Below, piece after piece: positions 1 through 51,207 of a stretch of 64,000 bases of DNA. The position numbers and the translations under genes are program-made. Numbering within the stretch: the stretch's first letter is position 1; the number at the start of each line of letters is the position of its first letter. Where the stretch lies: the NCBI GenBank assembly GCA_040954595.2, contig JBECUI020000029.1:124001-188000 (forward strand), read 5' to 3'. Under the pieces are notes generated by a model that saw only the letters and a program-made list of their open reading frames with translations, searched no databases and had not been told where the DNA came from. Origin of the DNA: Balanoglossus misakiensis. Its lineage: Eukaryota > Animalia > Hemichordata.

Positions 1-393
1 AGCCGTCCTGCATCAATTATTAATTGTGTACATGCACTAAAGCGCCCTCACTGCTGGGTGTGTTGTATGGTCTTTAACCCTGTTTCAAATTAGAGTACTT
101 TCTGCAATTTCAAGACAGATCTTACGTGCCATTGGAGAGCTCCATTGACTGGTCATTCATACTGTTTTCATTCATTCATTGCGGCATCAATATATTTTAT
201 CTATTCTAGCCAAAGAGCTTGGCACCTGTTGAAATGAACTCATCTGCTGTGGGCCAGTTTATTGGTGGCAGTTGAGCTGAGGAGAGCACCTTCCTTCCCG
301 GCACGCCACCAAGTAAAGTTCCACGCCGCCCACCACAGATGCCAGCATTCATTCATGCGAGTGAGTGTAATTGCAAATTTGCCTATTCTAGAT

Positions 394-570
394 CTGTAAT
401 GGAAATGGAGAAAGTACCTTATATTTTCTGTAAAATAGACATTTAATTGGCAAGCCGTCCTGCATCAATTATTAATTGTGTACATGCACTAAAGCGCCCT
501 CACTGCTGGGTGTGTTGTATGGTCTTTAACCCTGTTTCAAATTAGAGTACTTTCTGCAATTTCAAGACAG
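394..570. mobile_element. 177-bp MITE-like insert present in every 452-bp monomer (representative copy)
   Basis: Left end ctgtaatggaaatggagaaagtac vs reverse complement of right end ctgtcttgaaattgcagaaagtac: 19/24 identical. Flanked by AT on both sides (tctagAT|...|ATcttacg). Absent from short monomers. Confidence 0.7.
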
Positions 571-4600: not shown

Positions 4601-7600
4601 TTGGTGGCAGTTGAGCTGAGGAGAGCACCTTCCTTCCCGGCACGCCACCAAGTAAAGTTCCACGCCGCCCACCACAGATGCCAGCATTCATTCATGCGAG
4701 TGAGTGTAATTGCAAATTTGCCTATTCTAGAATCTTACGTGCCATTGGAGAGCTCCATTGACTGGTCATTCATACTGTTTTCATTCATTCATTGCGGCAT
4801 CAATATATTTTATCTATTCTAGCCAAAGAGCTTGGCACCTGTTGAAATGAACTCATCTGCTGTGGGCCAGTTTATTGGTGGCAGTTGAGCTGAGGAGAGC
4901 ACCTTCCTTCCCGGCACGCCACCAAGTAAAGTTCCACGCCGCCCACCACAGATGCCAGCATTCATTCATGCGAGTGAGTGTAATTGCAAATTTGCCTATT
5001 CTAGAATCTTACGTGCCATTGGAGAGCTCCATTGACTGGTCATTCATACTGTTTTCATTCATTCATTGCGGCATCAATATATTTTATCTATTCTAGCCGA
5101 AGAGCTTGGCACCTGTTGAAATGAACTCATCTGCTGTGGGCCAGTTTATTGGTGGCAGTTGAGCTGAGGAGAGCACCTTCCTTCCCGGCACGCCACCAAG
5201 TAAAGTTCCACGCCGCCCACCACAGATGCCAGCATTCATTCATGCGAGTGAGTGTAATTGCAAATTTGCCTATTCTAGATCTGTAATGGAAATGGAGAAA
5301 GTACCTTATATTTTCTGTAAAATAGACATTTAATTGGCAAGCCGTCCTGCATCAATTATTAATTGTGTACATGCACTAAAGCGCCCTCACTGCTGGGTGT
5401 GTTGTATGGTCTTTAACCCTGTTTCAAATTAGAGTACTTTCTGCAATTTCAAGACAGATCTTACGTGCCATTGGAGAGCTCCATTGACTGGTCATTCATA
5501 CTGTTTTCATTCATTCATTGCGGCATCAATATATTTTATCTATTCTAGCCAAAGAGCTTGGCACCTGTTGAAATGAACTCATCTGCTGTGGGCCAGTTTA
5601 TTGGTGGCAGTTGAGCTGAGGAGAGCACCTTCCTTCCCGGCACGCCACCAAGTAAAGTTCCACGCCGCCCACCACAGATGCCAGCATTCATTCATGCGAG
5701 TGAGTGTAATTGCAAATTTGCCTATTCTAGATTCTTACGTGCCATTGGAGAGCTCCATTGACTGGTCATTCATACTGTTTTCATTCATTCATTGCGGCAT
5801 CAATATATTTTATCTATTCTAGCCAAAGAGCTTGGCACCTGTTGAAATGAACTCATCTGCTGTGGGCCAGTTTATTGGTGGCAGTTGAGCTGAGGAGAGC
5901 ACCTTCCTTCCCGGCACGCCACCAAGTAAAGTTCCACGCCGCCCACCACAGATGCCAGCATTCATTCATGCGAGTGAGTGTAATTGCAAATTTGCCTATT
6001 CTAGAATCTTACGTGCCATTGGAGAGCTCCATTGACTGGTCATTCATACTGTTTTCATTCATTCATTGCGGCATCAATATATTTTATCTATTCTAGCCAA
6101 AGAGCTTGGCACCTGTTGAAATGAACTCATCTGCTGTGGGCCAGTTTATTGGTGGCAGTTGAGCTGAGGAGAGCACCTTCCTTCCCGGCACGCCACCAAG
6201 TAAAGTTCCACGCCGCCCACCACAGATGCCAGCATTCATTCATGCGAGTGAGTGTAATTGCAAATTTGCCTATTCTAGATCTGTAATGGAAATGGAGAAA
6301 GTACCTTATATTTTCTGTAAAATAGACATTTAATTGGCAAGCCGTCCTGCATCAATTATTAATTGTGTACATGCACTAAAGCGCCCTCACTGCTGGGTGT
6401 GTTGTATGGTCTTTAACCCTGTTTCAAATTAGAGTACTTTCTGCAATTTCAAGACAGATCTTACGTGCCATTGGAGAGCTCCATTGACTGGTCATTCATA
6501 CTGTTTTCATTCATTCATTGCGGCATCAATATATTTTATCTATTCTAGCCAAAGAGCTTGGCACCTGTTGAAATGAACTCATCTGCTGTGGGCCAGTTTA
6601 TTGGTGGCAGTTGAGCTGAGGAGAGCACCTTCCTTCCCGGCACGCCACCAAGTAAAGTTCCACGCCGCCCACCACAGATGCCAGCATTCATTCATGCGAG
6701 TGAGTGTAATTGCAAATTTGCCTATTCTAGATCTGTAATGGAAATGGAGAAAGTACCTTATATTTTCTGTAAAATAGACATTTAATTGGCAAGCCGTCCT
6801 GCATCAATTATTAATTGTGTACATGCACTAAAGCGCCCTCACTGCTGGGTGTGTTGTATGGTCTTTAACCCTGTTTCAAATTAGAGTACTTTCTGCAATT
6901 TCAAGACAGATCTTACGTGCCATTGGAGAGCTCCATTGACTGGTCATTCATACTGTTTTCATTCATTCATTGCGGCATCAATATATTTTATCTATTCTAG
7001 CCAAAGAGCTTGGCACCTGTTGAAATGAACTCATCTGCTGTGGGCCAGTTTATTGGTGGCAGTTGAGCTGAGGAGAGCACCTTCCTTCCCGGCACGCCAC
7101 CAAGTAAAGTTCCACGCCGCCCACCACAGATGCCAGCATTCATTCATGCGAGTGAGTGTAATTGCAAATTTGCCTATTCTAGATCTGTAATGGAAATGGA
7201 GAAAGTACCTTATATTTTCTGTAAAATAGACATTTAATTGGCAAGCCGTCCTGCATCAATTATTAATTGTGTACATGCACTAAAGCGCCCTCACTGCTGG
7301 GTGTGTTGTATGGTCTTTAACCCTGTTTCAAATTAGAGTACTTTCTGCAATTTCAAGACAGATCTTACGTGCCATTGGAGAGCTCCATTGACTGGTCATT
7401 CATACTGTTTTCATTCATTCATTGCGGCATCAATATATTTTATCTATTCTAGCCAAAGAGCTTGGCACCTGTTGAAATGAACTCATCTGCTGTGGGCCAG
7501 TTTATTGGTGGCAGTTGAGCTGAGGAGAGCACCTTCCTTCCCGGCACGCCACCAAGTAAAGTTCCACGCCGCCCACCACAGATGCCAGCATTCATTCATG

Positions 7601-10600
7601 CGAGTGAGTGTAATTGCAAATTTGCCTATTCTAGATCTGTAATGGAAATGGAGAAAGTACCTTATATTTTCTGTAAAATAGACATTTAATTGGCAAGCCG
7701 TCCTGCATCAATTATTAATTGTGTACATGCACTAAAGCGCCCTCACTGCTGGGTGTGTTGTATGGTCTTTAACCCTGTTTCAAATTAGAGTACTTTCTGC
7801 AATTTCAAGACAGATCTTACGTGCCATTGGAGAGCTCCATTGACTGGTCATTCATACTGTTTTCATTCATTCATTGCGGCATCAATATATTTTATCTATT
7901 CTAGCCAAAGAGCTTGGCACCTGTTGAAATGAACTCATCTGCTGTGGGCCAGTTTATTGGTGGCAGTTGAGCTGAGGAGAGCACCTTCCTTCCCGGCACG
8001 CCACCAAGTAAAGTTCCACGCCGCCCACCACAGATGCCAGCATTCATTCATGCGAGTGAGTGTAATTGCAAATTTGCCTATTCTAGATCTGTAATGGAAA
8101 TGGAGAAAGTACCTTATATTTTCTGTAAAATAGACATTTAATTGGCAAGCCGTCCTGCATCAATTATTAATTGTGTACATGCACTAAAGCGCCCTCACTG
8201 CTGGGTGTGTTGTATGGTCTTTAACCCTGTTTCAAATTAGAGTACTTTCTGCAATTTCAAGACAGATCTTACGTGCCATTGGAGAGCTCCATTGACTGGT
8301 CATTCATACTGTTTTCATTCATTCATTGCGGCATCAATATATTTTATCTATTCTAGCCAAAGAGCTTGGCACCTGTTGAAATGAACTCATCTGCTGTGGG
8401 CCAGTTTATTGGTGGCAGTTGAGCTGAGGAGAGCACCTTCCTTCCCGGCACGCCACCAAGTAAAGTTCCACGCCGCCCACCACAGATGCCAGCATTCATT
8501 CATGCGAGTGAGTGTAATTGCAAATTTGCCTATTCTAGATCTGTAATGGAAATGGAGAAAGTACCTTATATTTTCTGTAAAATAGACATTTAATTGGCAA
8601 GCCGTCCTGCATCAATTATTAATTGTGTACATGCACTAAAGCGCCCTCACTGCTGGGTGTGTTGTATGGTCTTTAACCCTGTTTCAAATTAGAGTACTTT
8701 CTGCAATTTCAAGACAGATCTTACGTGCCATTGGAGAGCTCCATTGACTGGTCATTCATACTGTTTTCATTCATTCATTGCGGCATCAATATATTTTATC
8801 TATTCTAGCCAAAGAGCTTGGCACCTGTTGAAATGAACTCATCTGCTGTGGGCCAGTTTATTGGTGGCAGTTGAGCTGAGGAGAGCACCTTCTTTCCCGG
8901 CACGCCACCAAGTAAAGTTCCACGCCGCCCACCACAGATGCCAGCATTCATTCATGCGAGTGAGTGTAATTGCAAATTTGCCTATTTACGTGCCATTGGA
9001 GAGCTCCATTGACTGGTCATTCATACTGTTTTCATTCATTCATTGCGGCATCAATATATTTTATCTATTCTAGCCAAAGAGCTTGGCACCTGTTGAAATG
9101 AACTCATCTGCTGTGGGCCAGTTTATTGGTGGCAGTTGAGCTGAGGAGAGCACCTTCCTTCCCGGCACGCCACCAAGTAAAGTTCCACGCCGCCCACCAC
9201 AGATGCCAGCATTCATTCATGCGAGTGAGTGTAATTGCAAATTTGCCTATTCTAGATCTGTAATGGAAATGGAGAAAGTACCTTATATTTTCTGTAAAAT
9301 AGACATTTAATTGGCAAGCCGTCCTGCATCAATTATTAATTGTGTACATGCACTAAAGCGCCCTCACTGCTGGGTGTGTTGTATGGTCTTTAACCCTGTT
9401 TCAAATTAGAGTACTTTCTGCAATTTCAAGACAGATCTTACGTGCCATTGGAGAGCTCCATTGACTGGTCATTCATACTGTTTTCATTCATTCATTGCGG
9501 CATCAATATATTTTATCTATTCTAGCCAAAGAGCTTGGCACCTGTTGAAATGAACTCATCTGCTGTGGGCCAGTTTATTGGTGGCAGTTGAGCTGAGGAG
9601 AGCACCTTCCTTCCCGGCACGCCACCAAGTAAAGTTCCACGCCGCCCACCACAGATGCCAGCATTCATTCATGCGAGTGAGTGTAATTGCAAATTTGCCT
9701 ATTCTAGAATTCTTACGTGCCATTGGAGAGCTCCATTGACTGGTCATTCATACTGTTTTCATTCATTCATTGCGGCATCAATATATTTTATCTATTCTAG
9801 CCAAAGAGCTTGGCACCTGTTGAAATGAACTCATCTGCTGTGGGCCAGTTTATTGGTGGCAGTTGAGCTGAGGAGAGCACCTTCCTTCCCGGCACGCCAC
9901 CAAGTAAAGTTCCACGCCGCCCACCACAGATGCCAGCATTCATTCATGCGAGTGAGTGTAATTGCAAATTTGCCTATTCTAGATCTGTAATGGAAATGGA
10001 GAAAGTACCTTATATTTTCTGTAAAATAGACATTTAATTGGCAAGCCGTCCTGCATCAATTATTAATTGTGTACATGCACTAAAGCGCCCTCACTGCTGG
10101 GTGTGTTGTATGGTCTTTAACCCTGTTTCAAATTAGAGTACTTTCTGCAATTTCAAGACAGATCTTACGTGCCATTGGAGAGCTCCATTGACTGGTCATT
10201 CATACTGTTTTCATTCATTCATTGCGGCATCAATATATTTTATCTATTCTAGCCAAAGAGCTTGGCACCTGTTGAAATGAACTCATCTGCTGTGGGCCAG
10301 TTTATTGGTGGCAGTTGAGCTGAGGAGAGCACCTTCTTTCCCGGCACGCCACCAAGTAAAGTTCCACGCCGCCCACCACAGATGCCAGCATTCATTCATG
10401 CGAGTGAGTGTAATTGCAAATTTGCCTATTCTAGAATCTTACGTGCCATTGGAGAGCTCCATTGACTGGTCATTCATACTGTTTTCATTCATTCATTGCG
10501 GCATCAATATATTTTATCTATTCTAGCCAAAGAGCTTGGCACCTGTTGAAATGAACTCATCTGCTGTGGGCCAGTTTATTGGTGGCAGTTGAGCTGAGGA

Positions 10601-13600
10601 GAGCACCTTCTTTCCCGGCACGCCACCAAGTAAAGTTCCACGCCGCCCACCACAGATGCCAGCATTCATTCATGCGAGTGAGTGTAATTGCAAATTTGCC
10701 TATTTACGTGCCATTGGAGAGCTCCATTGACTGGTCATTCATACTGTTTTCATTCATTCATTGCGGCATCAATATATTTTATCTATTCTAGCCAAAGAGC
10801 TTGGCACCTGTTGAAATGAACTCATCTGCTGTGGGCCAGTTTATTGGTGGCAGTTGAGCTGAGGAGAGCACCTTCCTTCCCGGCACGCCACCAAGTAAAG
10901 TTCCACGCCGCCCACCACAGATGCCAGCATTCATTCATGCGAGTGAGTGTAATTGCAAATTTGCCTATTCTAGATCTGTAATGGAAATGGAGAAAGTACC
11001 TTATATTTTCTGTAAAATAGACATTTAATTGGCAAGCCGTCCTGCATCAATTATTAATTGTGTACATGCACTAAAGCGCCCTCACTGCTGGGTGTGTTGT
11101 ATGGTCTTTAACCCTGTTTCAAATTAGAGTACTTTCTGCAATTTCAAGACAGATCTTACGTGCCATTGGAGAGCTCCATTGACTGGTCATTCATACTGTT
11201 TTCATTCATTCATTGCGGCATCAATATATTTTATCTATTCTAGCCAAAGAGCTTGGCACCTGTTGAAATGAACTCATCTGCTGTGGGCCAGTTTATTGGT
11301 GGCAGTTGAGCTGAGGAGAGCACCTTCTTTCCCGGCACGCCACCAAGTAAAGTTCCACGCCGCCCACCACAGATGCCAGCATTCATTCATGCGAGTGAGT
11401 GTAATTGCAAATTTGCCTATTCTAGAATCTTACGTGCCATTGGAGAGCTCCATTGACTGGTCATTCATACTGTTTTCATTCATTCATTGCGGCATCAATA
11501 TATTTTATCTATTCTAGCCAAAGAGCTTGGCACCTGTTGAAATGAACTCATCTGCTGTGGGCCAGTTTATTGGTGGCAGTTGAGCTGAGGAGAGCACCTT
11601 CTTTCCCGGCACGCCACCAAGTAAAGTTCCACGCCGCCCACCACAGATGCCAGCATTCATTCATGCGAGTGAGTGTAATTGCAAATTTGCCTATTCTAGA
11701 ATCTTACGTGCCATTGGAGAGCTCCATTGACTGGTCATTCATACTGTTTTCATTCATTCATTGCGGCATCAATATATTTTATCTATTCTAGCCAAAGAGC
11801 TTGGCACCTGTTGAAATGAACTCATCTGCTGTGGGCCAGTTTATTGGTGGCAGTTGAGCTGAGGAGAGCACCTTCCTTCCCGGCACGCCACCAAGTAAAG
11901 TTCCACGCCGCCCACCACAGATGCCAGCATTCATTCATGCGAGTGAGTGTAATTGCAAATTTGCCTATTCTAGAATCTTACGTGCCATTGGAGAGCTCCA
12001 TTGACTGGTCATTCATACTGTTTTCATTCATTCATTGCGGCATCAATATATTTTATCTATTCTAGCCAAAGAGCTTGGCACCTGTTGAAATGAACTCATC
12101 TGCTGTGGGCCAGTTTATTGGTGGCAGTTGAGCTGAGGAGAGCACCTTCCTTCCCGGCACGCCACCAAGTAAAGTTCCACGCCGCCCACCACAGATGCCA
12201 GCATTCATTCATGCGAGTGAGTGTAATTGCAAATTTGCCTATTCTAGAATCTTACGTGCCATTGGAGAGCTCCATTGACTGGTCATTCATACTGTTTTCA
12301 TTCATTCATTGCGGCATCAATATATTTTATCTATTCTAGCCGAAGAGCTTGGCACCTGTTGAAATGAACTCATCTGCTGTGGGCCAGTTTATTGGTGGCA
12401 GTTGAGCTGAGGAGAGCACCTTCCTTCCCGGCACGCCACCAAGTAAAGTTCCACGCCGCCCACCACAGATGCCAGCATTCATTCATGCGAGTGAGTGTAA
12501 TTGCAAATTTGCCTATTCTAGATCTGTAATGGAAATGGAGAAAGTACCTTATATTTTCTGTAAAATAGACATTTAATTGGCAAGCCGTCCTGCATCAATT
12601 ATTAATTGTGTACATGCACTAAAGCGCCCTCACTGCTGGGTGTGTTGTATGGTCTTTAACCCTGTTTCAAATTAGAGTACTTTCTGCAATTTCAAGACAG
12701 ATCTTACGTGCCATTGGAGAGCTCCATTGACTGGTCATTCATACTGTTTTCATTCATTCATTGCGGCATCAATATATTTTATCTATTCTAGCCAAAGAGC
12801 TTGGCACCTGTTGAAATGAACTCATCTGCTGTGGGCCAGTTTATTGGTGGCAGTTGAGCTGAGGAGAGCACCTTCCTTCCCGGCACGCCACCAAGTAAAG
12901 TTCCACGCCGCCCACCACAGATGCCAGCATTCATTCATGCGAGTGAGTGTAATTGCAAATTTGCCTATTCTAGATTCTTACGTGCCATTGGAGAGCTCCA
13001 TTGACTGGTCATTCATACTGTTTTCATTCATTCATTGCGGCATCAATATATTTTATCTATTCTAGCCAAAGAGCTTGGCACCTGTTGAAATGAACTCATC
13101 TGCTGTGGGCCAGTTTATTGGTGGCAGTTGAGCTGAGGAGAGCACCTTCCTTCCCGGCACGCCACCAAGTAAAGTTCCACGCCGCCCACCACAGATGCCA
13201 GCATTCATTCATGCGAGTGAGTGTAATTGCAAATTTGCCTATTCTAGAATCTTACGTGCCATTGGAGAGCTCCATTGACTGGTCATTCATACTGTTTTCA
13301 TTCATTCATTGCGGCATCAATATATTTTATCTATTCTAGCCAAAGAGCTTGGCACCTGTTGAAATGAACTCATCTGCTGTGGGCCAGTTTATTGGTGGCA
13401 GTTGAGCTGAGGAGAGCACCTTCCTTCCCGGCACGCCACCAAGTAAAGTTCCACGCCGCCCACCACAGATGCCAGCATTCATTCATGCGAGTGAGTGTAA
13501 TTGCAAATTTGCCTATTCTAGATCTGTAATGGAAATGGAGAAAGTACCTTATATTTTCTGTAAAATAGACATTTAATTGGCAAGCCGTCCTGCATCAATT

Positions 13601-16103
13601 ATTAATTGTGTACATGCACTAAAGCGCCCTCACTGCTGGGTGTGTTGTATGGTCTTTAACCCTGTTTCAAATTAGAGTACTTTCTGCAATTTCAAGACAG
13701 ATCTTACGTGCCATTGGAGAGCTCCATTGACTGGTCATTCATACTGTTTTCATTCATTCATTGCGGCATCAATATATTTTATCTATTCTAGCCAAAGAGC
13801 TTGGCACCTGTTGAAATGAACTCATCTGCTGTGGGCCAGTTTATTGGTGGCAGTTGAGCTGAGGAGAGCACCTTCCTTCCCGGCACGCCACCAAGTAAAG
13901 TTCCACGCCGCCCACCACAGATGCCAGCATTCATTCATGCGAGTGAGTGTAATTGCAAATTTGCCTATTCTAGATCTGTAATGGAAATGGAGAAAGTACC
14001 TTATATTTTCTGTAAAATAGACATTTAATTGGCAAGCCGTCCTGCATCAATTATTAATTGTGTACATGCACTAAAGCGCCCTCACTGCTGGGTGTGTTGT
14101 ATGGTCTTTAACCCTGTTTCAAATTAGAGTACTTTCTGCAATTTCAAGACAGATCTTACGTGCCATTGGAGAGCTCCATTGACTGGTCATTCATACTGTT
14201 TTCATTCATTCATTGCGGCATCAATATATTTTATCTATTCTAGCCAAAGAGCTTGGCACCTGTTGAAATGAACTCATCTGCTGTGGGCCAGTTTATTGGT
14301 GGCAGTTGAGCTGAGGAGAGCACCTTCCTTCCCGGCACGCCACCAAGTAAAGTTCCACGCCGCCCACCACAGATGCCAGCATTCATTCATGCGAGTGAGT
14401 GTAATTGCAAATTTGCCTATTCTAGATCTGTAATGGAAATGGAGAAAGTACCTTATATTTTCTGTAAAATAGACATTTAATTGGCAAGCCGTCCTGCATC
14501 AATTATTAATTGTGTACATGCACTAAAGCGCCCTCACTGCTGGGTGTGTTGTATGGTCTTTAACCCTGTTTCAAATTAGAGTACTTTCTGCAATTTCAAG
14601 ACAGATCTTACGTGCCATTGGAGAGCTCCATTGACTGGTCATTCATACTGTTTTCATTCATTCATTGCGGCATCAATATATTTTATCTATTCTAGCCAAA
14701 GAGCTTGGCACCTGTTGAAATGAACTCATCTGCTGTGGGCCAGTTTATTGGTGGCAGTTGAGCTGAGGAGAGCACCTTCCTTCCCGGCACGCCACCAAGT
14801 AAAGTTCCACGCCGCCCACCACAGATGCCAGCATTCATTCATGCGAGTGAGTGTAATTGCAAATTTGCCTATTCTAGATCTGTAATGGAAATGGAGAAAG
14901 TACCTTATATTTTCTGTAAAATAGACATTTAATTGGCAAGCCGTCCTGCATCAATTATTAATTGTGTACATGCACTAAAGCGCCCTCACTGCTGGGTGTG
15001 TTGTATGGTCTTTAACCCTGTTTCAAATTAGAGTACTTTCTGCAATTTCAAGACAGATCTTACGTGCCATTGGAGAGCTCCATTGACTGGTCATTCATAC
15101 TGTTTTCATTCATTCATTGCGGCATCAATATATTTTATCTATTCTAGCCAAAGAGCTTGGCACCTGTTGAAATGAACTCATCTGCTGTGGGCCAGTTTAT
15201 TGGTGGCAGTTGAGCTGAGGAGAGCACCTTCCTTCCCGGCACGCCACCAAGTAAAGTTCCACGCCGCCCACCACAGATGCCAGCATTCATTCATGCGAGT
15301 GAGTGTAATTGCAAATTTGCCTATTCTAGATCTGTAATGGAAATGGAGAAAGTACCTTATATTTTCTGTAAAATAGACATTTAATTGGCAAGCCGTCCTG
15401 CATCAATTATTAATTGTGTACATGCACTAAAGCGCCCTCACTGCTGGGTGTGTTGTATGGTCTTTAACCCTGTTTCAAATTAGAGTACTTTCTGCAATTT
15501 CAAGACAGATCTTACGTGCCATTGGAGAGCTCCATTGACTGGTCATTCATACTGTTTTCATTCATTCATTGCGGCATCAATATATTTTATCTATTCTAGC
15601 CAAAGAGCTTGGCACCTGTTGAAATGAACTCATCTGCTGTGGGCCAGTTTATTGGTGGCAGTTGAGCTGAGGAGAGCACCTTCCTTCCCGGCACGCCACC
15701 AAGTAAAGTTCCACGCCGCCCACCACAGATGCCAGCATTCATTCATGCGAGTGAGTGTAATTGCAAATTTGCCTATTCTAGATCTGTAATGGAAATGGAG
15801 AAAGTACCTTATATTTTCTGTAAAATAGACATTTAATTGGCAAGCCGTCCTGCATCAATTATTAATTGTGTACATGCACTAAAGCGCCCTCACTGCTGGG
15901 TGTGTTGTATGGTCTTTAACCCTGTTTCAAATTAGAGTACTTTCTGCAATTTCAAGACAGATCTTACGTGCCATTGGAGAGCTCCATTGACTGGTCATTC
16001 ATACTGTTTTCATTCATTCATTGCGGCATCAATATATTTTATCTATTCTAGCCAAAGAGCTTGGCACCTGTTGAAATGAACTCATCTGCTGTGGGCCAGT
16101 TTA
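1618..16103. repeat. Two copies of a 7243-bp higher-order repeat (20 monomers)
   Basis: Variant monomers recur at 1618, 8861, 16104. Order: 265,452,275,452,274,265,452,274,274,274,274,452,274,274, then 6x452, summing to 7243. The same period holds at 33730 to 40973. Confidence 0.97.
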
Positions 16104-16870
16104 TTGGTGGCAGTTGAGCTGAGGAGAGCACCTTCTTTCCCGGCACGCCACCAAGTAAAGTTCCACGCCGCCCACCACAGATGCCAGCATTCATTCATGC
16201 GAGTGAGTGTAATTGCAAATTTGCCTATTTACGTGCCATTGGAGAGCTCCATTGACTGGTCATTCATACTGTTTTCATTCATTCATTGCGGCATCAATAT
16301 ATTTTATCTATTCTAGCCAAAGAGCTTGGCACCTGTTGAAATGAACTCATCTGCTGTGGGCCAGTTTATTGGTGGCAGTTGAGCTGAGGAGAGCACCTTC
16401 CTTCCCGGCACGCCACCAAGTAAAGTTCCACGCCGCCCACCACAGATGCCAGCATTCATTCATGCGAGTGAGTGTAATTGCAAATTTGCCTATTCTAGAT
16501 CTGTAATGGAAATGGAGAAAGTACCTTATATTTTCTGTAAAATAGACATTTAATTGGCAAGCCGTCCTGCATCAATTATTAATTGTGTACATGCACTAAA
16601 GCGCCCTCACTGCTGGGTGTGTTGTATGGTCTTTAACCCTGTTTCAAATTAGAGTACTTTCTGCAATTTCAAGACAGATCTTACGTGCCATTGGAGAGCT
16701 CCATTGACTGGTCATTCATACTGTTTTCATTCATTCATTGCGGCATCAATATATTTTATCTATTCTAGCCAAAGAGCTTGGCACCTGTTGAAATGAACTC
16801 ATCTGCTGTGGGCCAGTTTATTGGTGGCAGTTGAGCTGAGGAGAGCACCTTCCTTCCCGGCACGCCACCA

Positions 16871-18677
16871 AGTAAAGTTCCACGTGCATTCCTGGCCCTG
16901 GTTTTATTTATGTTTACAGACAATATTGCATTTTTGTACAAGTATTTTAATCAACTATAAATTTTGAATGTGTCATTTACCTGAACCGGTCATGTTGACC
17001 AGAATGATACATTTCTGCCTTCACTCACCCTATAAATATGTGATTGAGACATAGGTCATTTGCATAAGCTAACATACCAGAAAGTAAGCATATCTGTTGT
17101 TTTCCCTGTGTCACTGCCATCAAAGTAAAAATTAGACGTTGTGTAGAGCAAACTCCAATTTTTTGTTCTCAATAAACATGGATGAATTACATAGAATGTG
17201 TTTGTTGTTTACAGTCTTTAAATGACACATTAGATTATGCACTTTACAAAACGTTTCTGAGAAACAAGTGACTAACTAGTTTCTTTCCACTGTGGCCAAC
17301 GTGGTTCACTGTTTGTGTCAGAATCTCTCTGTTTTGCAAGGATTTTGAAATCATAGTGGTGACATGCATAGTGAAAATCAGCTACTTTCAAATGTCCGTC
17401 ATGTTCATGCTGTAATTGAATTTTCAAAGCTGGGCTGGCGTGTTTTTTCTTATTTACATAAGTATCACACTTTATACATGTATCTTCATGGGGTTTTTTG
17501 AGTCCCGTATTTAGGTCCTCTCTCACAATTTTACGAAATATCGTATAACTGACAGTTGTTCTTCCCAGAAGAGATTGGTTGGTTATGAACTCTCGGTGTA
17601 ACTGCGATATACTGTGGGCCGGCGCCAGGTACGGTTTAAATCGAGGATTCCTGCAGTAGTGAGATTCTACAATTCTGTGCCTGCGTACGTGTTCAGTGAT
17701 ATCAGTCAGCAAATTTGGATTGAGTTTCCGACGATGCCCTTTGTGTCGGCCCCTTGCATCTGGCATCAGACCAGTAAAGTTCCATGTGCATTCCTGGCCC
17801 TGGTTTTATTTATGTTTACAGACAATATTGCATTTTTGTACAAGTATTTTAATCAACTATAAATTTTGAATGTGTCATTTACCTGAACCGGTCATGTTGA
17901 CCAGAATGATACATTTCTGCCTTCACTCACCCTATAAATATGTGATTGAGACATAGGTCATTTGCATAAGCTAACATACCAGAAAGTAAGCATATCTGAT
18001 GTTTTCCCTGTGTCACTGCCATCAAAGTAAAAATTAGACGTTGTGTAGAGCAAACTCCAATTTTTTGTTCTCAATAAACATGGATGAATTACATAGAATG
18101 TGTTTGTTGTTTACAGTCTTTAAATGACACATTAGATTATGCACTTTACAAAACGTTTCTGAGAAACAAGTGACTAACTAGTTTCTTTCCACTGTGGCCA
18201 ACGTGGTTCACTGTTTGTGTCAGAATCTCTCTGTTTTGCAAGGATTTTGAAATCATAGTGGTGACATGCATAGTGAAAATCAGCTACTTTCAAATGTCCG
18301 TCATGTTCATGCTGTAATTGAATTTTCAAAGCTGGGCTGGCGTGTTTTTTCTTATTTACATAAGTATCACACTTTATACATGTATCTTCATGGGGTTTTC
18401 TGAGTCCCGTATTTAGGTCCTCTCTCACAATTTTACGAAATATCGTATAACTGACAGTTGTTCTTCCCAGAAGAGATTGGTTGGTTATGAACTCTCGGTG
18501 TAACTGCGATATACTGTGGTCCGGTGCCAGGTACGGTTTAAATCGAGGATTCCTGCAGTAGTGAGATTCTACAATTCTGTGCCTGCGTACGTGTTCAGTG
18601 ATATCAGTCAGCAAATTTGGATTGAGTTTCCGACGATGCCCTTTGTGTCGGCCCCTTGCATCTGGCATCAGACCAGT
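16871..18677. repeat. 902-bp tandem duplication inside the cassette
   Basis: 16871-17775 matches 17773-18677 with a few substitutions. Junction has agt microhomology (gaccagt|aaagttcc vs gaccagt|tgaacag). Confidence 0.95.
17272..17775 (-). pseudogene. 5'-truncated duplicate of the transposase N-half gene (164-aa ORF from an internal Met)
   Basis: Matches the last 164 aa of the 18174-19136 ORF except two residues (D>A, R>K); created by the 902-bp duplication. Confidence 0.75.
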
Positions 18678-19130
18678 TGAACAGTGCATCATTTTGCTTA
18701 GAACGGTTCTAGTCCGCCTCTCACTAATGCCAAATAATTTCAGGAATGCATTTTTGCAGACAGTAACCGTTTCACCGCCTTCATTCACCAGGTGATAACG
18801 AACCGATTTCTTGTGTGACTTCATCTGCATATCCATCAGTTTGTAGAGCATCAAGTTCTGTTCATTATACACGCGACCATCAAAATATTTTCTCGTGGTG
18901 CCTAAAACATGCGTACTCCCAAGCTTCCGCATACAATTCCCTTGAACGCAGGCGCATTCCAAGGAAAGACTGTCAATATCTGGAAAAGGGCGATTTTTCC
19001 TTGGTTTTTGTCTCGGACACGTCTTTTTAGAATTCCTACGTGGCTTGTTGGCTCGAGCTGACAGTTCGGTTCTGCGTTGCTGCCACACAGGAATGGGTTC
19101 CCACGCATAAGCAACTCCCCGGCAGGCCAT
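18174..19130 (-). CDS. Sola1-like transposase, N-terminal half (putative DNA-binding/Zn region)
   Basis: Open ORF with first ATG at 19130. Motifs VCKNAFLKLFGIS, DARGRH, ESHYCR..YL, VSYTIFRKIV...KPHEDTCxxCD...HxxH resemble the N-terminal half of Sola1-type transposases. No catalytic motifs. Confidence 0.8.
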   Translation of the reverse strand: MACRGVAYAWEPIPVWQQRRTELSARANKPRRNSKKTCPRQKPRKNRPFPDIDSLSLECACVQGNCMRKLGSTHVLGTTRKYFDGRVYNEQNLMLYKLMDMQMKSHKKSVRYHLVNEGGETVTVCKNAFLKLFGISERRTRTVLSKMMHCSTGLMPDARGRHKGHRRKLNPNLLTDITEHVRRHRIVESHYCRNPRFKPYLAPDHSISQLHREFITNQSLLGRTTVSYTIFRKIVREDLNTGLRKPHEDTCIKCDTYVNKKKHASPALKIQLQHEHDGHLKVADFHYACHHYDFKILAKQRDSDTNSEPRWPQWKETS

Positions 19131-19177
19131 GGTCACAGCTGAAGTATTTGTTCAAGTACTGACTGACTAAACGCGGC

Positions 19178-20311
19178 ATGGAACAAACGAACGAACGACT
19201 TCACGTTCGGAAAAAAAATCGTTGCGAGCTGTTGGGTGCATGCCTCTATAGTTGTCGGCAACCGTTCTTTTTTATTGCTAAACAATGCTGTCAGAGCATG
19301 GAAGGTGTGGTGGAAAACGAACAGAGGTTTTGTACGACCAACGATTGGATGGTGCTACATATGGACTTCCACAAGTCATTGCCGGTTCCTAAACTCAGCT
19401 CTGAAGACTTTTACTTTAAATCGAAATTGCAAATGAAGCTCCTTGGAATTTACAACGGGACAACGGAAAAGATGCATTGTTATGTATGGACAGAGCTCGA
19501 TAGCAGAAAGTCTCCCGATGAAGTTATTACCTGTCTAAATCACTTTTTTTATAACTCGGGTGTGACCAGCAGACATGCAGTTATTTACAGCGACAACTGC
19601 CGTGCCGAATTCAAGTGTGGGAAGTTAATGTTTTACTATGACTATCTGTTACGAAAGGGCGTGTTTCGACGAATTGACTATAAAACTCTTGTGGCTGGAC
19701 ACACGTACTCCACCTGTGACCGAGTTTTTGCGTCCATTGAAAGGCATGCAAGTCGTTTCCAGAGTATAGAGACACCTCACGATTGGACATCTGTGATTCG
19801 AGGATCTTCTCTGAATGGGAACATTGGAGTTACGGAGATGACTCACAGAGACTTTTTCAATTATTCTGATTTCCTGAAAAATGAGTACGTTGTGCGTTAT
19901 GCAGATACAAACAATGTAACTTTTTACTACCAAGCCATGCACTATTTTAATTTTGGAGAAGGAGAAAGGCTTGATACCGACGGCAACCTCAGAACATTTA
20001 GTCATGCAGATAAAGTTTGGGTGAGAACATCTCTAGATCCAAGCGAGACCCCGATTGTAGTCGACTTTAGAAAGAAGAAGCAGAACCGGCGTTTACAAGA
20101 TTGTACGCTGAACAAACTTTATCAGGAACGTCGACCACTGGCGAGCAAAGTTTGGCGGGATCTTCAGAGTTTAGCCAAAAATTACCTGTCTCCGGAGGCA
20201 ATAGAATTTTATAGGAATCTACCGCTTCAGGAGAGTAGTGGCACCTCTGCAGACCCGTACGCCTTTCATGATGATGACGACGACGATGATGATGATATGG
20301 GCGGTGGTTGA
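19178..20311 (+). CDS. Sola1-like transposase, catalytic DDD half
   Basis: 377-aa ORF (alternative start ATG 19298, agcATGG). Motifs DFHKSLPVP..FYFKSKL, CYVWTE..EVITCL, SDNC, GHTYSTCDRVFASIE; acidic tail. AATAAA overlaps the stop (20311-20316). Confidence 0.88.
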   Translation: MEQTNERLHVRKKNRCELLGACLYSCRQPFFFIAKQCCQSMEGVVENEQRFCTTNDWMVLHMDFHKSLPVPKLSSEDFYFKSKLQMKLLGIYNGTTEKMHCYVWTELDSRKSPDEVITCLNHFFYNSGVTSRHAVIYSDNCRAEFKCGKLMFYYDYLLRKGVFRRIDYKTLVAGHTYSTCDRVFASIERHASRFQSIETPHDWTSVIRGSSLNGNIGVTEMTHRDFFNYSDFLKNEYVVRYADTNNVTFYYQAMHYFNFGEGERLDTDGNLRTFSHADKVWVRTSLDPSETPIVVDFRKKKQNRRLQDCTLNKLYQERRPLASKVWRDLQSLAKNYLSPEAIEFYRNLPLQESSGTSADPYAFHDDDDDDDDDMGGG

Positions 20312-20472
20312 ATAAACTGTCCTTTTCATGACGACAGTGATTTTGGATATTTGATGTGCGTGCACAGTTTATATGTAATATTTTCACACGAACGAGTTTT
20401 GACTGAATTTGATTAAAGAATGTACTCGATAATTAACAAATGTGCTGAATCGTGGTTATTATGTTGTTAATT

Positions 20473-20512
20473 TTTGTTTGTTTGTTTGTTTGTTTGTTTG
20501 TTTGTTTGTTTG
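20473..20512. repeat. (TTTG)10 microsatellite
   Basis: Read directly; same tract at 52503-52542. Confidence 0.95.
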
Positions 20513-20645
20513 TAAACAATTTCCGTTCATTCAACTGGCTACAAAGTTGGATTTTTGTACTGGGAAGCGATAAACTCGCACATCAAAACCGGGGAGACTC
20601 GATCATTTTTCCCTGCAGGTAGCCTGAAAAGCACCCGGGCAGAGA

Positions 20646-20718
20646 TTACGTCATATATGGTCCACTTTAATACGAAATTATGCAAATGTGACATTTCACG
20701 GAAACGGCGTATATAAAA
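20646..20718 (+). promoter_or_regulatory. Putative Pol II promoter of the wH-SET gene
   Basis: CRE-like TTACGTCA (20646), octamer ATGCAAAT (20680), TATAAAA (20712), about 100 bp upstream of ATG 20811. Confidence 0.55.
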
Positions 20719-20810
20719 GCGACCCTGGGCTATTGTTCGGAATGCGTCATCGACGAGAGAGTGACTGATAATTCTTCTACCTCGAGTCAACCATTCTGTA
20801 TATACTGAAC

Positions 20811-22148
20811 ATGGCTAGCTGGCGCAGGAAGAGACAAGGCAATGTGCGGTCTGTAATCAACGAACGGCACCGCTCAGTTCAGTGTCCCTTTCTTCAAAAG
20901 TGGATCGGTGAGCAATTGGTATTTTCAGGTCGTTCAGAGGATGAAGTCCAGTCCAGTACTGTATTTGAGAGCTACAAATGTTGGGTTGAAAACTATTCGT
21001 CGGCGGACAATCAAGTAATGATTATGGTTACTAAAGCTCGATTTTTCAAGGTGAGAATGATCGCATTTTTCTTTCCCCCCCCCCCCCTCCCTCCCTCCCT
21101 CCCCCAAGGGACTCGTTTTCTGTCTCTTTTAAACCTGTAACTTAACGAAAAGGAAGTTTTTCACATATCTCTTCGTTGACACTATAGCAATTTGGAGCGC
21201 GGATGCTTCAAGAGAAGAGCGTTACCAAATCAAAGTCGGCCGGGGTTAATATTTATAGAGGTGTTCGTCTGAAAGCTGGTTCGCGAAGAATCTCAACGGG
21301 GAAACCTGAGCACAGTGTACTTCAGACCAGGGCAAGGGCATTTCTTGATGACGCCAGCGTGACCGTTCCGATCGAGGTAAGAATGGTGTTTTGTTTGGAC
21401 TAGGACAATAGAACGTTGCAATGAGTGTGTCAATGGGTGTCCAAGTGCAAACGTGGTCTGCTTCTGTCCACAAATGCCATTAATTTTTGGCAGGATTTAT
21501 AAAATTGTCAATGAAGAATACAAAAATGAAAAACAACAGTTAATAGCAAACTGGTAGGATTGCAAGGGCTTGTAAAACGGTACACACTGTACCAGGAAGT
21601 TTGCAACACTAATGAAGAATGTATATGATATATTTAGGTGAGAACTGTTCGCGATCGCCGGGACGCAGGACGGTGCGCGTTTTCGACGAGGGATATTCAA
21701 GCCTGGGACGTCGTCTGCGAATACCGGGGCACGGTTATTAGCGTTGAAGAAGCTAGTCGGCGTGATGAGCTTTACAGGGCAGAGGGGAAACGACCACGCA
21801 TGTTCCATCTCTACATTGGAAAGAGACACGTTGTGTGAGTGTATCACTTAGTCGAATATATGGTCATATATTGCAAAGCATCTGTCGAAATAGAAAACGT
21901 AATATTGTCTATATTTTCCTCATTAACGCAGCATTGACGGATACGATGTCCCAGCCGGTGAAGAAAATTTAGCAGGCCTAATAAATCACAGTCAGCAGAA
22001 CGCCAACTTGGTACCGGTTCGGATCGGAGAGCGCCTGGTTTTCTTTGCAACCAGGAATCTTTGTCAGGGAGTAGAGCTTTTGTATGATTACGGTGACGGG
22101 GGTGAAGAGGATTTCTTCAGTGGTTCTCAAACTTTTCCTGAAAATTAA
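20811..22148 (+). CDS. Spliced gene (~280 aa): winged-helix-like domain + SETD8/PR-Set7-like SET lysine methyltransferase
   Basis: Exons 20811-21050, 21188-21376, 21638-21834, 21932-22148 with GT-AG introns joining in frame (phases 0,0,2). SET motifs GRCAFSTRDI..VCEYRG, IDG..NLAGLINHS..N, ELLYDYGD. N-terminal WIGEQL..SSTVFESYKCW..FFKQF..YRGVRLK resembles RFX/D5-C winged helices. Confidence 0.85.
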
Positions 22149-23051
22149 GGCATTAACACATCAACGCTTCGGGGTGTCGTAACGGCGGCGCGGCGGGGGG
22201 GGGGGGGACGTGAAAATGTTTGTATCAGGAACAAAATTCCCGTGCAAATCACCTTGATCCGGGTGGGTGGACTATTCGCGACAAATGTTGAAATCATACA
22301 AAGCATTTTACTTAATTAACCCATTTTTTTCATTTATTTGTTTACAGTTTACAACGTCATAGAGAAGTTGAACTAGAGACTGGATCAGCGTGGGTGACAC
22401 CATAGTACACCAATGTTTTCTTCAGTTTGATTCAATTGTAATTTAAAACTGAGATTGCCTAACGCTTTCCCAGATTTTTTTAACCACTGAGAAACTGTGG
22501 GTTTTTTTCTGGGTTTTGGTGCGAGGTGATCTCAGTCAGTGGTGTTAATTTAATTAATCATTTTCTTTTCCTATTTACGTCGACTGAAATGTATTTTGAT
22601 AGGTGATAGTCATACCATAAAAAAAATCTTACGGCGCGACTGCCAAAATGTACATTTATTTGTCCGTTCCAAGTTATTTTGTGTATGTGTGATGGGTGCC
22701 GGTGACTGTGCAGGGTTGATTTCCCTAGAGCGACTGTTATATTCGTTTTCCAACGATGATGAATTTACATGTTATTTGCTTGGCATTTTGACGCAGAGAC
22801 ACTTCTGAAAACACAAACCTATTAATTATGCCACGGGTGTAAATTGATCACATTAAAAGAGGCTTTAGACGTTTGCCGCGAGCTCCTGGTGGGCAGAATC
22901 TTGTCAGCCCAAATTTGACTATAAGTACATAGCCAATGATGTGACGCTCTCCCACATCCTTCGCCGCGCCTTTTCGCTGATTTACAGCATCTTGCGTAAA
23001 CACTGTCATTTGATCTTGCTTGGCAGAAGTCAACTTGCTCTATACTACATT

Positions 23052-23417
23052 ATGGCGGCCAAGCTCAACTGCATATCAGATAATGCCAAGGAGCGTTTGA
23101 GAGGCATCCTCGCCAGAAGGAGTCGCGTTTCCGGTGACTGTGTGCTCTGGACGGGTGCAGCTTGTCGAAACGGCTATGGCTCTATTACGTTCAGAGATGA
23201 GAACACTCTAACCGCCTATGTCCATCACATTGCACTCCTAATTAACGGAGTGCAATTGGTGGGCAGGCGGTTAGAGTGTTCTCATCTTTGCAACGAAAAG
23301 CTATGCATCCGCCCAGAGCACATTGTCCAGGAAACGCGACTCCTAAACATTTCACGAAAGACGTGCTTTAAATCCCCAAAAGGGGAGTGTCACCACGATC
23401 CCAGGTGCCTAAGGTGA
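23052..23417 (+). CDS. His-Cys box / His-Me finger endonuclease (I-PpoI-like), ~121 aa
   Basis: CVLWTG..NGYG..YVHH..ECSHLCNEKLCIRPEHIVQE...NISRKTC..CHHDPRC matches the zinc-binding His-Cys box pattern. ATG 23052; CCAAT upstream near 22933. A gtgagt overlaps the stop, so a small terminal intron is possible. Confidence 0.85.
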   Translation: MAAKLNCISDNAKERLRGILARRSRVSGDCVLWTGAACRNGYGSITFRDENTLTAYVHHIALLINGVQLVGRRLECSHLCNEKLCIRPEHIVQETRLLNISRKTCFKSPKGECHHDPRCLR

Positions 23418-24395
23418 GTAATCCTCTTCTCATTTGATATGTATTGTGTGACCCTGCAGTTGAAACGCTTTCATCAATAATTTGCGGCGCGTGGGTAATC
23501 TCGGTGTTATTGACAATGCAGCCGGCCCAAACATTTTTAAATTAACACTGTTTCTGACTGTATTAACGAAATGTCCAATTTGCAAGTAGCCTATAGACAA
23601 CCCTTTTGAATGAGTTTTGTCTCGTTGAGATTTTATACATAAGGAACAATCTAGATTTATTTTAGAAGACACTGTTCTTTTAAAACAGCTAGCATAATAC
23701 AGCTAAATTTCGGAATTTCCGGACAATTTTCGGAATTCCTTTTAAATTTGAGAAATTTTTCATCAGATATAAGTGTTACTATTTATTGGACATGTTTTTA
23801 TCATTGTTTACTTTTTAAGGTCATTCTCACCCCCCCCCCCCCCAAAAAAAGCCGCTTTAGGCTTCATGTTCAGTAAAAAATCTGGAAAGTTCAGCTGAAT
23901 TTTACACTGATCACACATTTTTGGGAAGGTCTGGCGCAAAATAAAGGATGACAAATGTAAATCTAATGTCACATTTGTAAACCTCTAAGTATTGTACACT
24001 CATTCTATTAAGTATATGCAAATAGTACGGATAATTTTTTCGGAATGTGGAATTCCGAAATTAGTTCGGAACGTGTTAGCAGTGAAGAGATCACCACTGA
24101 GGGTTGGAAGGCCTTGCCAGAAATTAACGCGTAAAGTACGCCCTCACAGGCCATGTAAACAAGGTCAAATAAGGCCGTCTGGCAAACGAATGATTAATTC
24201 AACGCGCCATTTGAGCCGAGCTGAGTTGGTCTGAGTTGCGTATCACACAGACTTAGGCTGAATGTCAGTGGAGTAACCAGTCCGTTTTAGATTTACCAAT
24301 GATGTGAATTTAATTTCTTCACCCAGAAAAACAGAACACAACTTGTCTGCAACATGATGCTGGAGGTGACACATGACAGAGAAGTGGATCCGCGT

Positions 24396-24730
24396 TGTCA
24401 ACACAGATGCCAGCATTCAAAAGGGGAGTGCCACCTGCTAAAATCAACTCATCTGCTGTTGGCCCATTTTACCTGTGGCAACTGTTCAGAGGAGACAACG
24501 TTTATTCCGTGCAAGCCAACACGCAATGTTGGGGTCTACCTGTCAACACAGATGCAAGCATTCATGTGAGTGAGTATCAGGACTGACCTTGTATTTGCTG
24601 AATAATTCATAATGCCTATTTTAGAATTCTTAGAGGCATTTGGAGTTCATTGCCTGGTCAACCAAACTACACCCCTTAACAGCTGAAACAAAATGCGTAT
24701 TGTGTTCATTCATTCATTGCATCAATATAT
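24396..24730. repeat. Diverged relic of the satellite monomer inside the cassette
   Basis: Colinear matches: acagatgccagcattca, cacctgctaaaatcaactcatctgctgttggcc, gtgagtgagt, tgcctattttagaattctta, ttcattcattcattgcatcaatatat. Confidence 0.85.
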
Positions 24731-25037
24731 ATAGGCAACATGAGTATCAAGTAGCACTATTTGTTTACGATTGTATTCATGAAAACTTCCCACTAACAAT
24801 TCCACAGTTAATATTGAACACATTTATCCAACAAGGTCAAAAGAAAAAGGGAATCTTCTGGTTCCAAAATACGCCACAAATGTGGGTCAACATACAGTGA
24901 AATATTATGGTGCTCAAATATGCAACATATCAAATCTGTCTCATCAAAGTCATGCTTTAAAAAAGAATTGAAAAGGTATTATTTATCCATTTGACTGCTG
25001 TATTTTCAGAAGGAAAACAAACTGAATTTGGTTTTTC

Positions 25038-28000
25038 AAGTACCTTATATTTTCTGTAAAATAGACATTTAATTGGCAAGCCGTCCTGCATCAATTATTA
25101 ATTGTGTACATGCACTAAAGCGCCCTCACTGCTGGGTGTGTTGTATGGTCTTTAACCCTGTTTCAAATTAGAGTACTTTCTGCAATTTCAAGACAGATCT
25201 TACGTGCCATTGGAGAGCTCCATTGACTGGTCATTCATACTGTTTTCATTCATTCATTGCGGCATCAATATATTTTATCTATTCTAGCCAAAGAGCTTGG
25301 CACCTGTTGAAATGAACTCATCTGCTGTGGGCCAGTTTATTGGTGGCAGTTGAGCTGAGGAGAGCACCTTCCTTCCCGGCACGCCACCAAGTAAAGTTCC
25401 ACGCCGCCCACCACAGATGCCAGCATTCATTCATGCGAGTGAGTGTAATTGCAAATTTGCCTATTCTAGATCTGTAATGGAAATGGAGAAAGTACCTTAT
25501 ATTTTCTGTAAAATAGACATTTAATTGGCAAGCCGTCCTGCATCAATTATTAATTGTGTACATGCACTAAAGCGCCCTCACTGCTGGGTGTGTTGTATGG
25601 TCTTTAACCCTGTTTCAAATTAGAGTACTTTCTGCAATTTCAAGACAGATCTTACGTGCCATTGGAGAGCTCCATTGACTGGTCATTCATACTGTTTTCA
25701 TTCATTCATTGCGGCATCAATATATTTTATCTATTCTAGCCAAAGAGCTTGGCACCTGTTGAAATGAACTCATCTGCTGTGGGCCAGTTTATTGGTGGCA
25801 GTTGAGCTGAGGAGAGCACCTTCCTTCCCGGCACGCCACCAAGTAAAGTTCCACGCCGCCCACCACAGATGCCAGCATTCATTCATGCGAGTGAGTGTAA
25901 TTGCAAATTTGCCTATTCTAGATCTGTAATGGAAATGGAGAAAGTACCTTATATTTTCTGTAAAATAGACATTTAATTGGCAAGCCGTCCTGCATCAATT
26001 ATTAATTGTGTACATGCACTAAAGCGCCCTCACTGCTGGGTGTGTTGTATGGTCTTTAACCCTGTTTCAAATTAGAGTACTTTCTGCAATTTCAAGACAG
26101 ATCTTACGTGCCATTGGAGAGCTCCATTGACTGGTCATTCATACTGTTTTCATTCATTCATTGCGGCATCAATATATTTTATCTATTCTAGCCAAAGAGC
26201 TTGGCACCTGTTGAAATGAACTCATCTGCTGTGGGCCAGTTTATTGGTGGCAGTTGAGCTGAGGAGAGCACCTTCCTTCCCGGCACGCCACCAAGTAAAG
26301 TTCCACGCCGCCCACCACAGATGCCAGCATTCATTCATGCGAGTGAGTGTAATTGCAAATTTGCCTATTCTAGATCTGTAATGGAAATGGAGAAAGTACC
26401 TTATATTTTCTGTAAAATAGACATTTAATTGGCAAGCCGTCCTGCATCAATTATTAATTGTGTACATGCACTAAAGCGCCCTCACTGCTGGGTGTGTTGT
26501 ATGGTCTTTAACCCTGTTTCAAATTAGAGTACTTTCTGCAATTTCAAGACAGATCTTACGTGCCATTGGAGAGCTCCATTGACTGGTCATTCATACTGTT
26601 TTCATTCATTCATTGCGGCATCAATATATTTTATCTATTCTAGCCAAAGAGCTTGGCACCTGTTGAAATGAACTCATCTGCTGTGGGCCAGTTTATTGGT
26701 GGCAGTTGAGCTGAGGAGAGCACCTTCCTTCCCGGCACGCCACCAAGTAAAGTTCCACGCCGCCCACCACAGATGCCAGCATTCATTCATGCGAGTGAGT
26801 GTAATTGCAAATTTGCCTATTCTAGATCTGTAATGGAAATGGAGAAAGTACCTTATATTTTCTGTAAAATAGACATTTAATTGGCAAGCCGTCCTGCATC
26901 AATTATTAATTGTGTACATGCACTAAAGCGCCCTCACTGCTGGGTGTGTTGTATGGTCTTTAACCCTGTTTCAAATTAGAGTACTTTCTGCAATTTCAAG
27001 ACAGATCTTACGTGCCATTGGAGAGCTCCATTGACTGGTCATTCATACTGTTTTCATTCATTCATTGCGGCATCAATATATTTTATCTATTCTAGCCAAA
27101 GAGCTTGGCACCTGTTGAAATGAACTCATCTGCTGTGGGCCAGTTTATTGGTGGCAGTTGAGCTGAGGAGAGCACCTTCTTTCCCGGCACGCCACCAAGT
27201 AAAGTTCCACGCCGCCCACCACAGATGCCAGCATTCATTCATGCGAGTGAGTGTAATTGCAAATTTGCCTATTTACGTGCCATTGGAGAGCTCCATTGAC
27301 TGGTCATTCATACTGTTTTCATTCATTCATTGCGGCATCAATATATTTTATCTATTCTAGCCAAAGAGCTTGGCACCTGTTGAAATGAACTCATCTGCTG
27401 TGGGCCAGTTTATTGGTGGCAGTTGAGCTGAGGAGAGCACCTTCCTTCCCGGCACGCCACCAAGTAAAGTTCCACGCCGCCCACCACAGATGCCAGCATT
27501 CATTCATGCGAGTGAGTGTAATTGCAAATTTGCCTATTCTAGATCTGTAATGGAAATGGAGAAAGTACCTTATATTTTCTGTAAAATAGACATTTAATTG
27601 GCAAGCCGTCCTGCATCAATTATTAATTGTGTACATGCACTAAAGCGCCCTCACTGCTGGGTGTGTTGTATGGTCTTTAACCCTGTTTCAAATTAGAGTA
27701 CTTTCTGCAATTTCAAGACAGATCTTACGTGCCATTGGAGAGCTCCATTGACTGGTCATTCATACTGTTTTCATTCATTCATTGCGGCATCAATATATTT
27801 TATCTATTCTAGCCAAAGAGCTTGGCACCTGTTGAAATGAACTCATCTGCTGTGGGCCAGTTTATTGGTGGCAGTTGAGCTGAGGAGAGCACCTTCCTTC
27901 CCGGCACGCCACCAAGTAAAGTTCCACGCCGCCCACCACAGATGCCAGCATTCATTCATGCGAGTGAGTGTAATTGCAAATTTGCCTATTCTAGAATTCT

Positions 28001-51160: not shown

Positions 51161-51207
51161 GGTCACAGCTGAAGTATTTGTTCAAGTACTGACTGACTAA
51201 ACGCGGC

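Follow-up and report, generated by a model that had tools for sequence, protein, structure and literature searches.

A putative DNA transposon with a transposase split over two genes and a SETD8-like gene, resident in a hemichordate satellite

Results

Organization of the locus

The window, by which we mean the whole 64,000-nucleotide stretch of Balanoglossus misakiensis DNA analysed here, is a eukaryotic satellite that is broken twice by a gene cassette. The satellite fills positions 1..16884 (+) and continues at 25197-48914 and 57232-64000; it is built from a 275-bp spacer with or without a miniature element (units of 452, 274, 275 and 265 bp) and has a higher-order repeat of 7243 bp. The preliminary description of this DNA had read four genes in the cassette, and all four are real: three are open reading frames at 18174-19130 (-), 19178-20311 (+) and 23052-23417 (+), and the fourth is a SET gene of four exons. 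The Pfam searches that it had called for returned DUF7869 for 19178-20311, SET for two exons and zf-His_Me_endon for 23052-23414.

The cassette had also been described as present twice, in like orientation and at like junctions, and a second match with the orientation and junctions of the first was indeed found at 48915-57072. Over 8.15 kb, the copies starting at 16885 and 48915 are 99.89% identical, with 2 substitutions and 7 gap bases. Element copy 1 spans 16885..25196 and has an intact right end, while its own left TIR is missing; copy 2 (48915..57231) has the same structure. The left junction of copy 1 lies inside a spacer monomer, no left TIR was found within the cassette, and the window holds 71 left-TIR starts versus 73 right-TIR ends. 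Common to both copies are the lost left end, a 902-bp internal duplication and debris at the right end, and their right flanks match exactly over 1790 bp. As the lost left end and the duplication are found in both, one event was copied within the array: the two copies are a single damaged insertion, left end already lost, that was duplicated by array recombination. Their recurrence at the same junctions does not count as evidence of targeting; independent targeted insertion of the two is ruled out by the left-end loss, duplication, debris and flank that they share.

The tandem duplication (16871..17775, -) repeats the 3' part of the transposase N-half gene, is 99.4% identical to 17773-18677 and holds a 164-aa ORF at 17272-17766. 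Inside the element, at 24425..24730 (+), lie old spacer monomers in degenerate form (~71% identity), and the association of element and satellite is therefore old. At 24735..25000 (+), reading frames point to a candidate 3' fragment of what is presumably a CR1/L2-type LINE; Pfam returned no match there. Several smaller features were also noted. A foldback element of 424 bp (48363-48786), 93% self-complementary and with a TA duplication, is present only in the monomer to the left of copy 2. Inverted arms of 23 nt, 309 bp apart, at 23717-24071 possibly mark a nested miniature element. A poly(A)-signal-like hexamer lies on the minus strand at 16898-16903, ~15 bp from the left junction, and another overlaps the stop codon of the transposase catalytic half. 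Rfam had no match in window positions 15900-26200 or in the 11 of 26 relative loci searched, so that no small-RNA-gene target was seen.

A transposase in two halves

The 318-aa ORF at 18174..19130 (-) has no Pfam match, and a word-based homologue search, which covers only near-length matches, was empty. Its product aligns with the N-terminal part of full-length DUF7869 proteins, with E-values to 4e-20, and is therefore the missing first half of the transposase; it represents the predicted DNA-binding part and carries the conserved motifs ESHY and DTCxxCD. The catalytic half (19178..20311, +; Pfam E = 1.3e-14) is a DUF7869 protein with an RNase H DDE fold, and its likely start at 19298 gives a length of 337 aa. 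Judging by its motifs, DUF7869 may be linked to Sola1. No solved relative was found by sequence search with this half; its structure model (pLDDT 84.8) is nearest to integrases and IstA. Residues D23, D99 and D141 are conserved in the alignment, as in the acidic triad of the RNase H fold, the third catalytic residue being either D141 or E148. The two transposase halves of the preliminary description are both intact genes; their arrangement is in fact divergent, on opposite strands and 47 bp apart.

A profile search with the catalytic half yielded 7804 relatives at E-values up to 0.001. The tree has 120 rows, namely the window protein and 119 of the 151 representatives tried, the remainder not covering the catalytic core. 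The window protein belongs to a 13-member clade with an SH-like support of 1.0. None of the 13 has the N-terminal region, and in every protein the first catalytic aspartate is preceded by at most ~25 residues; one sequence is truncated, and several come from gene callers, so that their starts are predictions. The next three rows also lack the N-half, two of them having a PHD-like finger. Fused forms account for 65 of the 120 rows, all of them outside the clade of 13 and its 16-member parent. Judged from these sequences, the split is an old one and a gene fission.

Other arrangements were observed among the relatives. In the sister clade, P0012 and P0031 (the latter a cluster of 32 members) have a PHD-like finger (Pfam E = 0.001-0.002, below the cut-off) fused to the catalytic half, without the N-half. 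P0021 has a 350-aa N-terminal extension with no N-half match, which may represent read-through of a gene on the opposite strand. At 240-447 of locus L001, the N-half stop is followed after a 41-bp gap by the ATG of the catalytic half on the same strand, a likely intermediate of the split; here the catalytic half contains an intron.

Six N-halves could be aligned, and all stop after one conserved helix. The same terminal helix forms the predicted interface between the N-half and the catalytic half, with an ipSAE of 0.69 versus 0.09 for the best control; the runs agreed in at least 71% of contacts, with a partner pLDDT of at least 60. The mark set for this score is reached by 51 of 78 solved pairs and by 2 of 108 mismatched pairs. 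The model supports the prediction that the two halves reassemble, with the proviso that split halves can score through their likeness to fused forms, and fused relatives known to the model may have contributed to the score.

The SETD8-like gene

The SETD8-like methyltransferase gene (20811..22148, +) has exons at 20811-21050, 21188-21376, 21638-21834 and 21932-22148, which are separated by three GT-AG introns and encode 280 aa with no internal stop. Its intron positions agree with those in L004 and L022, the two loci inspected. The N-terminus of the protein is a conserved helical domain; a test of the winged-helix label that the preliminary description had given to this protein, made with exon 1 only, gave a pLDDT of 65.8 and a best Z-score of 4.5, with no match to a fold or family. 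With the intron-less relative L006 as query, the best-scoring solved structures from eukaryotes for the SET domain were those of SETD8/PR-Set7 (KMT5A; E = 1.6e-8), and the top PDB match overall was 4ldg (E = 9e-11). Catalytic motifs of the SETD8-like class are present, NHS and the YDY-type motif both being kept. In L006 itself, the SET gene (1402-2217) is without the introns that are present in the 87-90% identical L022, which suggests either a spliced transcript or intron loss.

The His-Cys box nuclease gene

The ORF at 23052..23417 (+) encodes a His-Cys box (I-PpoI-like) nuclease of 121 aa (Pfam zf-His_Me_endon, 2e-13), whose alignment to I-PpoI preserves the His/Cys positions and those of the catalytic motif. 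A tblastn search and a motif scan of all 26 relative loci detected it in none of them, and Pfam returned no match for it among 136 relative ORFs (88 of the 95 from L013, 45 of the 71 from L022 and 3 others). The real test of its absence lies in L010-L013, which cover the whole element and form one family, most of the other loci being short. The word-based homologue search, with its restriction to near-length matches, was again empty. Because it is absent from all 26 relatives, including the four that cover the whole element, the nuclease is on these comparisons an accessory of the window's lineage, and the earlier view of it as a core part is not supported.

Most of the nuclease coding sequence forms one hairpin, a long inverted repeat of ~230 nt (23118..23344, +) with a folding energy of -154.5 kcal/mol (z = -18.2; 0 of 200 shuffles). 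The complete coding sequence folds at -191.6, versus -104.5 ± 7.9 in 200 synonymous recodings, and both arms of the hairpin still lie within the nuclease family match. No comparable hairpin was present in two phage HNH genes (z = 0.0 and 0.4). We infer that the hairpin reflects selection for double-strandedness of the transcript, as a check on a toxic enzyme; it may also have originated at the DNA level, by conversion between the arms. The repeat has no fixed codon register, and its mismatches (6 G-U, 1 A-C and 3 other) give a weak hint of RNA-level selection.

Conservation of three genes in relative loci

The relative set comprises 26 loci with a match to the catalytic half at 31-44% identity. 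A separate N-half ORF is found in 13 of them, a SET match in 10, and all three genes in 6, which represent three distinct sequence families (L004; L010-L013; L022). Protein identity across the loci that have the three genes together is 30-36%, and gene order varies: L001 has the N-half and catalytic half in tandem, separated by a stop and a new ATG; the two are convergent in 12 loci, whereas those of the window are divergent; and the SET gene lies upstream or downstream of the catalytic half depending on the locus. The synteny search suggested in the preliminary description did find the three genes together in distant loci, and chance capture, which it had named as an outcome that would undo its reading, does not apply to these genes. 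Its call for dN/dS among divergent copies was also answered, with values of 0.09-0.42 in 13 of 14 computable pairs (27 pairs in total, 13 of them saturated at synonymous sites); one near-identical N-half pair gave 0.81 on very few changes. The SET gene and both transposase halves form the conserved core of the family, and sequence comparison supports both the three-gene core and the split well.

Named protein relatives come from a hemichordate (47%), a sea anemone and a coral, and no relatives were found in the viral contigs scanned. Near-identical protein clusters of up to 20 members are spread across many contigs, and decayed copies with frameshifts occur in L018, L019, L021 and L023. Rearrangements were also seen at single loci. 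Partial duplications of SET exon 4 or of pieces of the catalytic half (L022 726-3085, L003 1735-2992) resemble the 902-bp duplication of the window. L002 (1-231 and 812-1472) has a 78-bp tandem repeat immediately upstream of the catalytic-half gene and a 342-bp duplication. In L013, the element contains a 137-bp stretch that is preceded by two alternative sequences (1-114 versus 13667-13780), which marks a structural polymorphism between copies.

Element ends, miniature and satellite junctions

The 452-bp monomer consists of the 275-bp spacer, which starts and ends with AT, and a 177-bp piece that has an imperfect inverted repeat, beginning with CTG, at each end. The element had been described as ending at 25037; its real end is the TIR at 25196, 159 bp further. 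These last 159 bp of the cassette are the interior and the right repeat of the 177-bp piece, which identifies this piece as a miniature form of the element. The right end common to both (25038..25196, +) includes the right TIR at 25173-25196 and is followed by AT. In the miniature, the left TIR is joined to this right end at a 6-bp microhomology; the example copy at 16501..16677 (+), one of 70 whole copies counted, has AT on both sides.

The 123 simple monomers divide into 70 with the miniature and 53 without it. The latter show four junction forms, all at the site of the miniature: both flanking bases complemented (5 monomers), a single-base loss on either the one side (32) or the other (5), and a 10-bp loss (11). 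These forms match the footprints that hairpin-forming transposases leave behind. No support for this footprint rule was found in the accessible part of PMC2862397. A 275-type junction is already present in the old degenerate monomer inside the element; it may therefore be the ancestral form, from which the 274 forms could derive by 1-bp deletions.

A complete relative is provided by L010-L013, one unit of 13.5-13.67 kb with AT-flanked TIRs and a short repeat of its own, with a 126-127-bp monomer. The contigs run from the right end through the spacer to the left end, and these circular joins may represent assembly through collapsed monomers. TIRs are therefore present in the miniature and at the right end in the window, and at both ends in L011-L013. 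The right TIR of the window resembles each of the L013 TIRs (1 of 20000 shuffles each), the likeness of the left TIR is weak (644 and 671 of 20000), and an unanchored scan was non-significant (43/100). Both lineages have AT on both sides of the element, with no untouched site among the monomers seen. The start of L012 is an element-free junction of two 126-bp monomers that is one base short of the two flanks, like the 274-bp units. An element in unique flanking DNA was seen neither in the window nor in the loci. Termini and arrays are seen in two lineages, the window and L010-L013, the other 22 loci being short and showing no TIR. What stands of the mobile multi-gene family tied to tandem arrays that had been claimed is thus the three genes and the arrays in two lineages; the membership of the nuclease does not.

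Discussion

We consider it probable that the window carries a copy, lacking the left end, that belongs to a family of TIR DNA transposons with a two-gene DDE transposase, predicted to reassemble, and a SETD8-like gene whose product likely methylates array chromatin. The two-chain transposase would cut at the TIRs, and element-spacer units would amplify head to tail through unequal exchange. Excision via hairpins on the flanking DNA would leave spacer-spacer junctions with 1-bp scars, so that the satellite would largely be the residue of element arrays. The window copies could borrow a left TIR from an upstream miniature, carrying monomers along. The SET enzyme would write H4K20me-like marks that bias the array towards repair by end joining or towards additional replication; SET8 is tied to re-replication, compaction and 53BP1-favoured end joining in the accessible text of PMC3597678, and these links suggest how an element that lives in arrays could profit from such a gene. 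The nuclease would be a lineage-specific passenger, probably restrained by its self-paired mRNA. The activities of moving, cutting and marking are predictions, and satellite building and chromatin marking are plausible and testable. We propose only tentatively, as possible rather than probable, that this is a new animal transposon group, which lives as arrays, makes satellite by self-excision, uses a two-chain transposase, biases repair or replication with its own histone mark and, in this lineage, silences its nuclease through a hairpin coding sequence.

The main alternative holds that the element merely targets an AT-centred site in pre-existing host satellites, which would then not be its product. 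Between the spacers of the two lineages (275 and 127 bp), any relation is weak at best (20 of 2000 shuffles), both sites are semi-palindromic, and the part of PMC5932611 available to us gives insertion-site preference as a known route to tandem elements. We nevertheless think this rather unlikely: the clean 273-bp form, an untouched site with an AT duplication, is found in 0 of the 123 simple monomers, and the sole element-free junction in L012 is likewise not of the clean form.

Improbable, in our judgement, is a drive of the KolobokP kind, in which the nuclease would cut the palindromic, AATT-centred 275-bp junction, the 274 and 265 forms would be repair scars, miniature-filled monomers would be immune, and the nuclease would power array turnover. 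Its I-PpoI-like motif is intact, all length variants fall at one site, and 274a and 274c both differ from 275 by a single base; moreover, multimerisation of KolobokP has been proposed to proceed via nuclease-induced unequal crossover (PMC9587614, in the portion accessible). However, L010-L013 have a similar one-base-short junction and an array with no such nuclease, and excision alone accounts for the scars.

Still more doubtful is a host-domesticated module that serves in satellite or centromere maintenance and has lost transposition. Purifying selection, introns, the missing left TIR in the window and homogeneous arrays would agree with it, but it does not sit well with the many divergent families, the shuffled gene order, the TIRs and the miniature, nor with the decayed copies and the near-identical proteins on many contigs. 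A chance mosaic of unrelated nested elements, true of the right-end debris and possibly of the nuclease, which no relative carries, is refuted for the three core genes by their recurrence in several orders and is very improbable as an account of the whole.

The transposon reading offers a concrete and testable route from transposon to satellite, through arrays in which each element-free monomer bears a scar. The transposase would be a natural, long-lived fission of a DDE enzyme into two independently oriented genes. In its SET gene, this transposon would carry a chromatin writer of its own that purifying selection maintains, and in a sister clade the catalytic half is joined to a PHD-like reader. 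Apart from this, the nuclease gene, with its long hairpin, deserves study as a curiosity in its own right. No description of the element was found in the literature searched, a scope outside which Repbase, Dfam, Repbase Reports and most subscription journals lay; the transposon lineage is real and apparently undescribed, with earlier cataloguing in Repbase or Dfam a possibility.

Among known systems, PIF/Harbinger elements place DNA binding and catalysis on separate genes and would work alike. They are recognized by Myb/SANT and DDE_Tnp_4 domains, whereas here the N-half has no Pfam match, and none to Myb/SANT, the catalytic half is DUF7869, and both genes come from the fission of one transposase. 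SETD8/PR-Set7 (KMT5A) provides the nearest eukaryotic solved structures to the SET protein and has the NHS and YDY-type motifs in common with it; the predicted methyltransferase differs in being element-borne and in having another N-terminal domain. Sola1 resembles the element in its DDE transposase with an N-terminal DTCxxCD region, its TIRs and its miniatures. As described in the accessible part of PMC3845634, Sola1 has one ORF (630 aa in one example) and 4-bp AWWT/AWDT duplications, whereas here the transposase occupies two genes, the flanks share only 2 bp (AT) in both lineages, and a SET gene and array residence are added. Measured against that description, the earlier label of a Sola1-type element is not supported on either count, duplication or single ORF. 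The portions of PMC4455052 and PMC5751038 that were accessible serve as classification context only.

Tandem transposon arrays in Drosophila are similar in that they seed satellites (PMC5932611, accessible part). There, however, the arrays are incidental, whereas here two distant lineages share them, with spacer-only monomers and a putative chromatin writer. KolobokP, to the extent that the available text of PMC9587614 describes it, likewise combines a DDE transposase with an I-PpoI-like nuclease and forms head-to-tail multimers separated by a direct repeat, and its LTDR of 450 bp is close in size to the 452-bp monomer. Both the His-Cys box nuclease, in the window only, and the head-to-tail multimers were found here. 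In contrast to KolobokP, whose LTDRs have their own TIRs and RR..YY termini, the TIRs bound the gene-bearing part and not the repeat, and the termini are CTG..CAG; the transposase is another one, the nuclease is not conserved, and a SET gene is present. The C/DxxH signature after the second D is absent from the catalytic-half alignment, as judged by inspection. By analogy with what that source reports, the element would behave like a two-gene cut-and-paste transposon that multimerises as KolobokP does.
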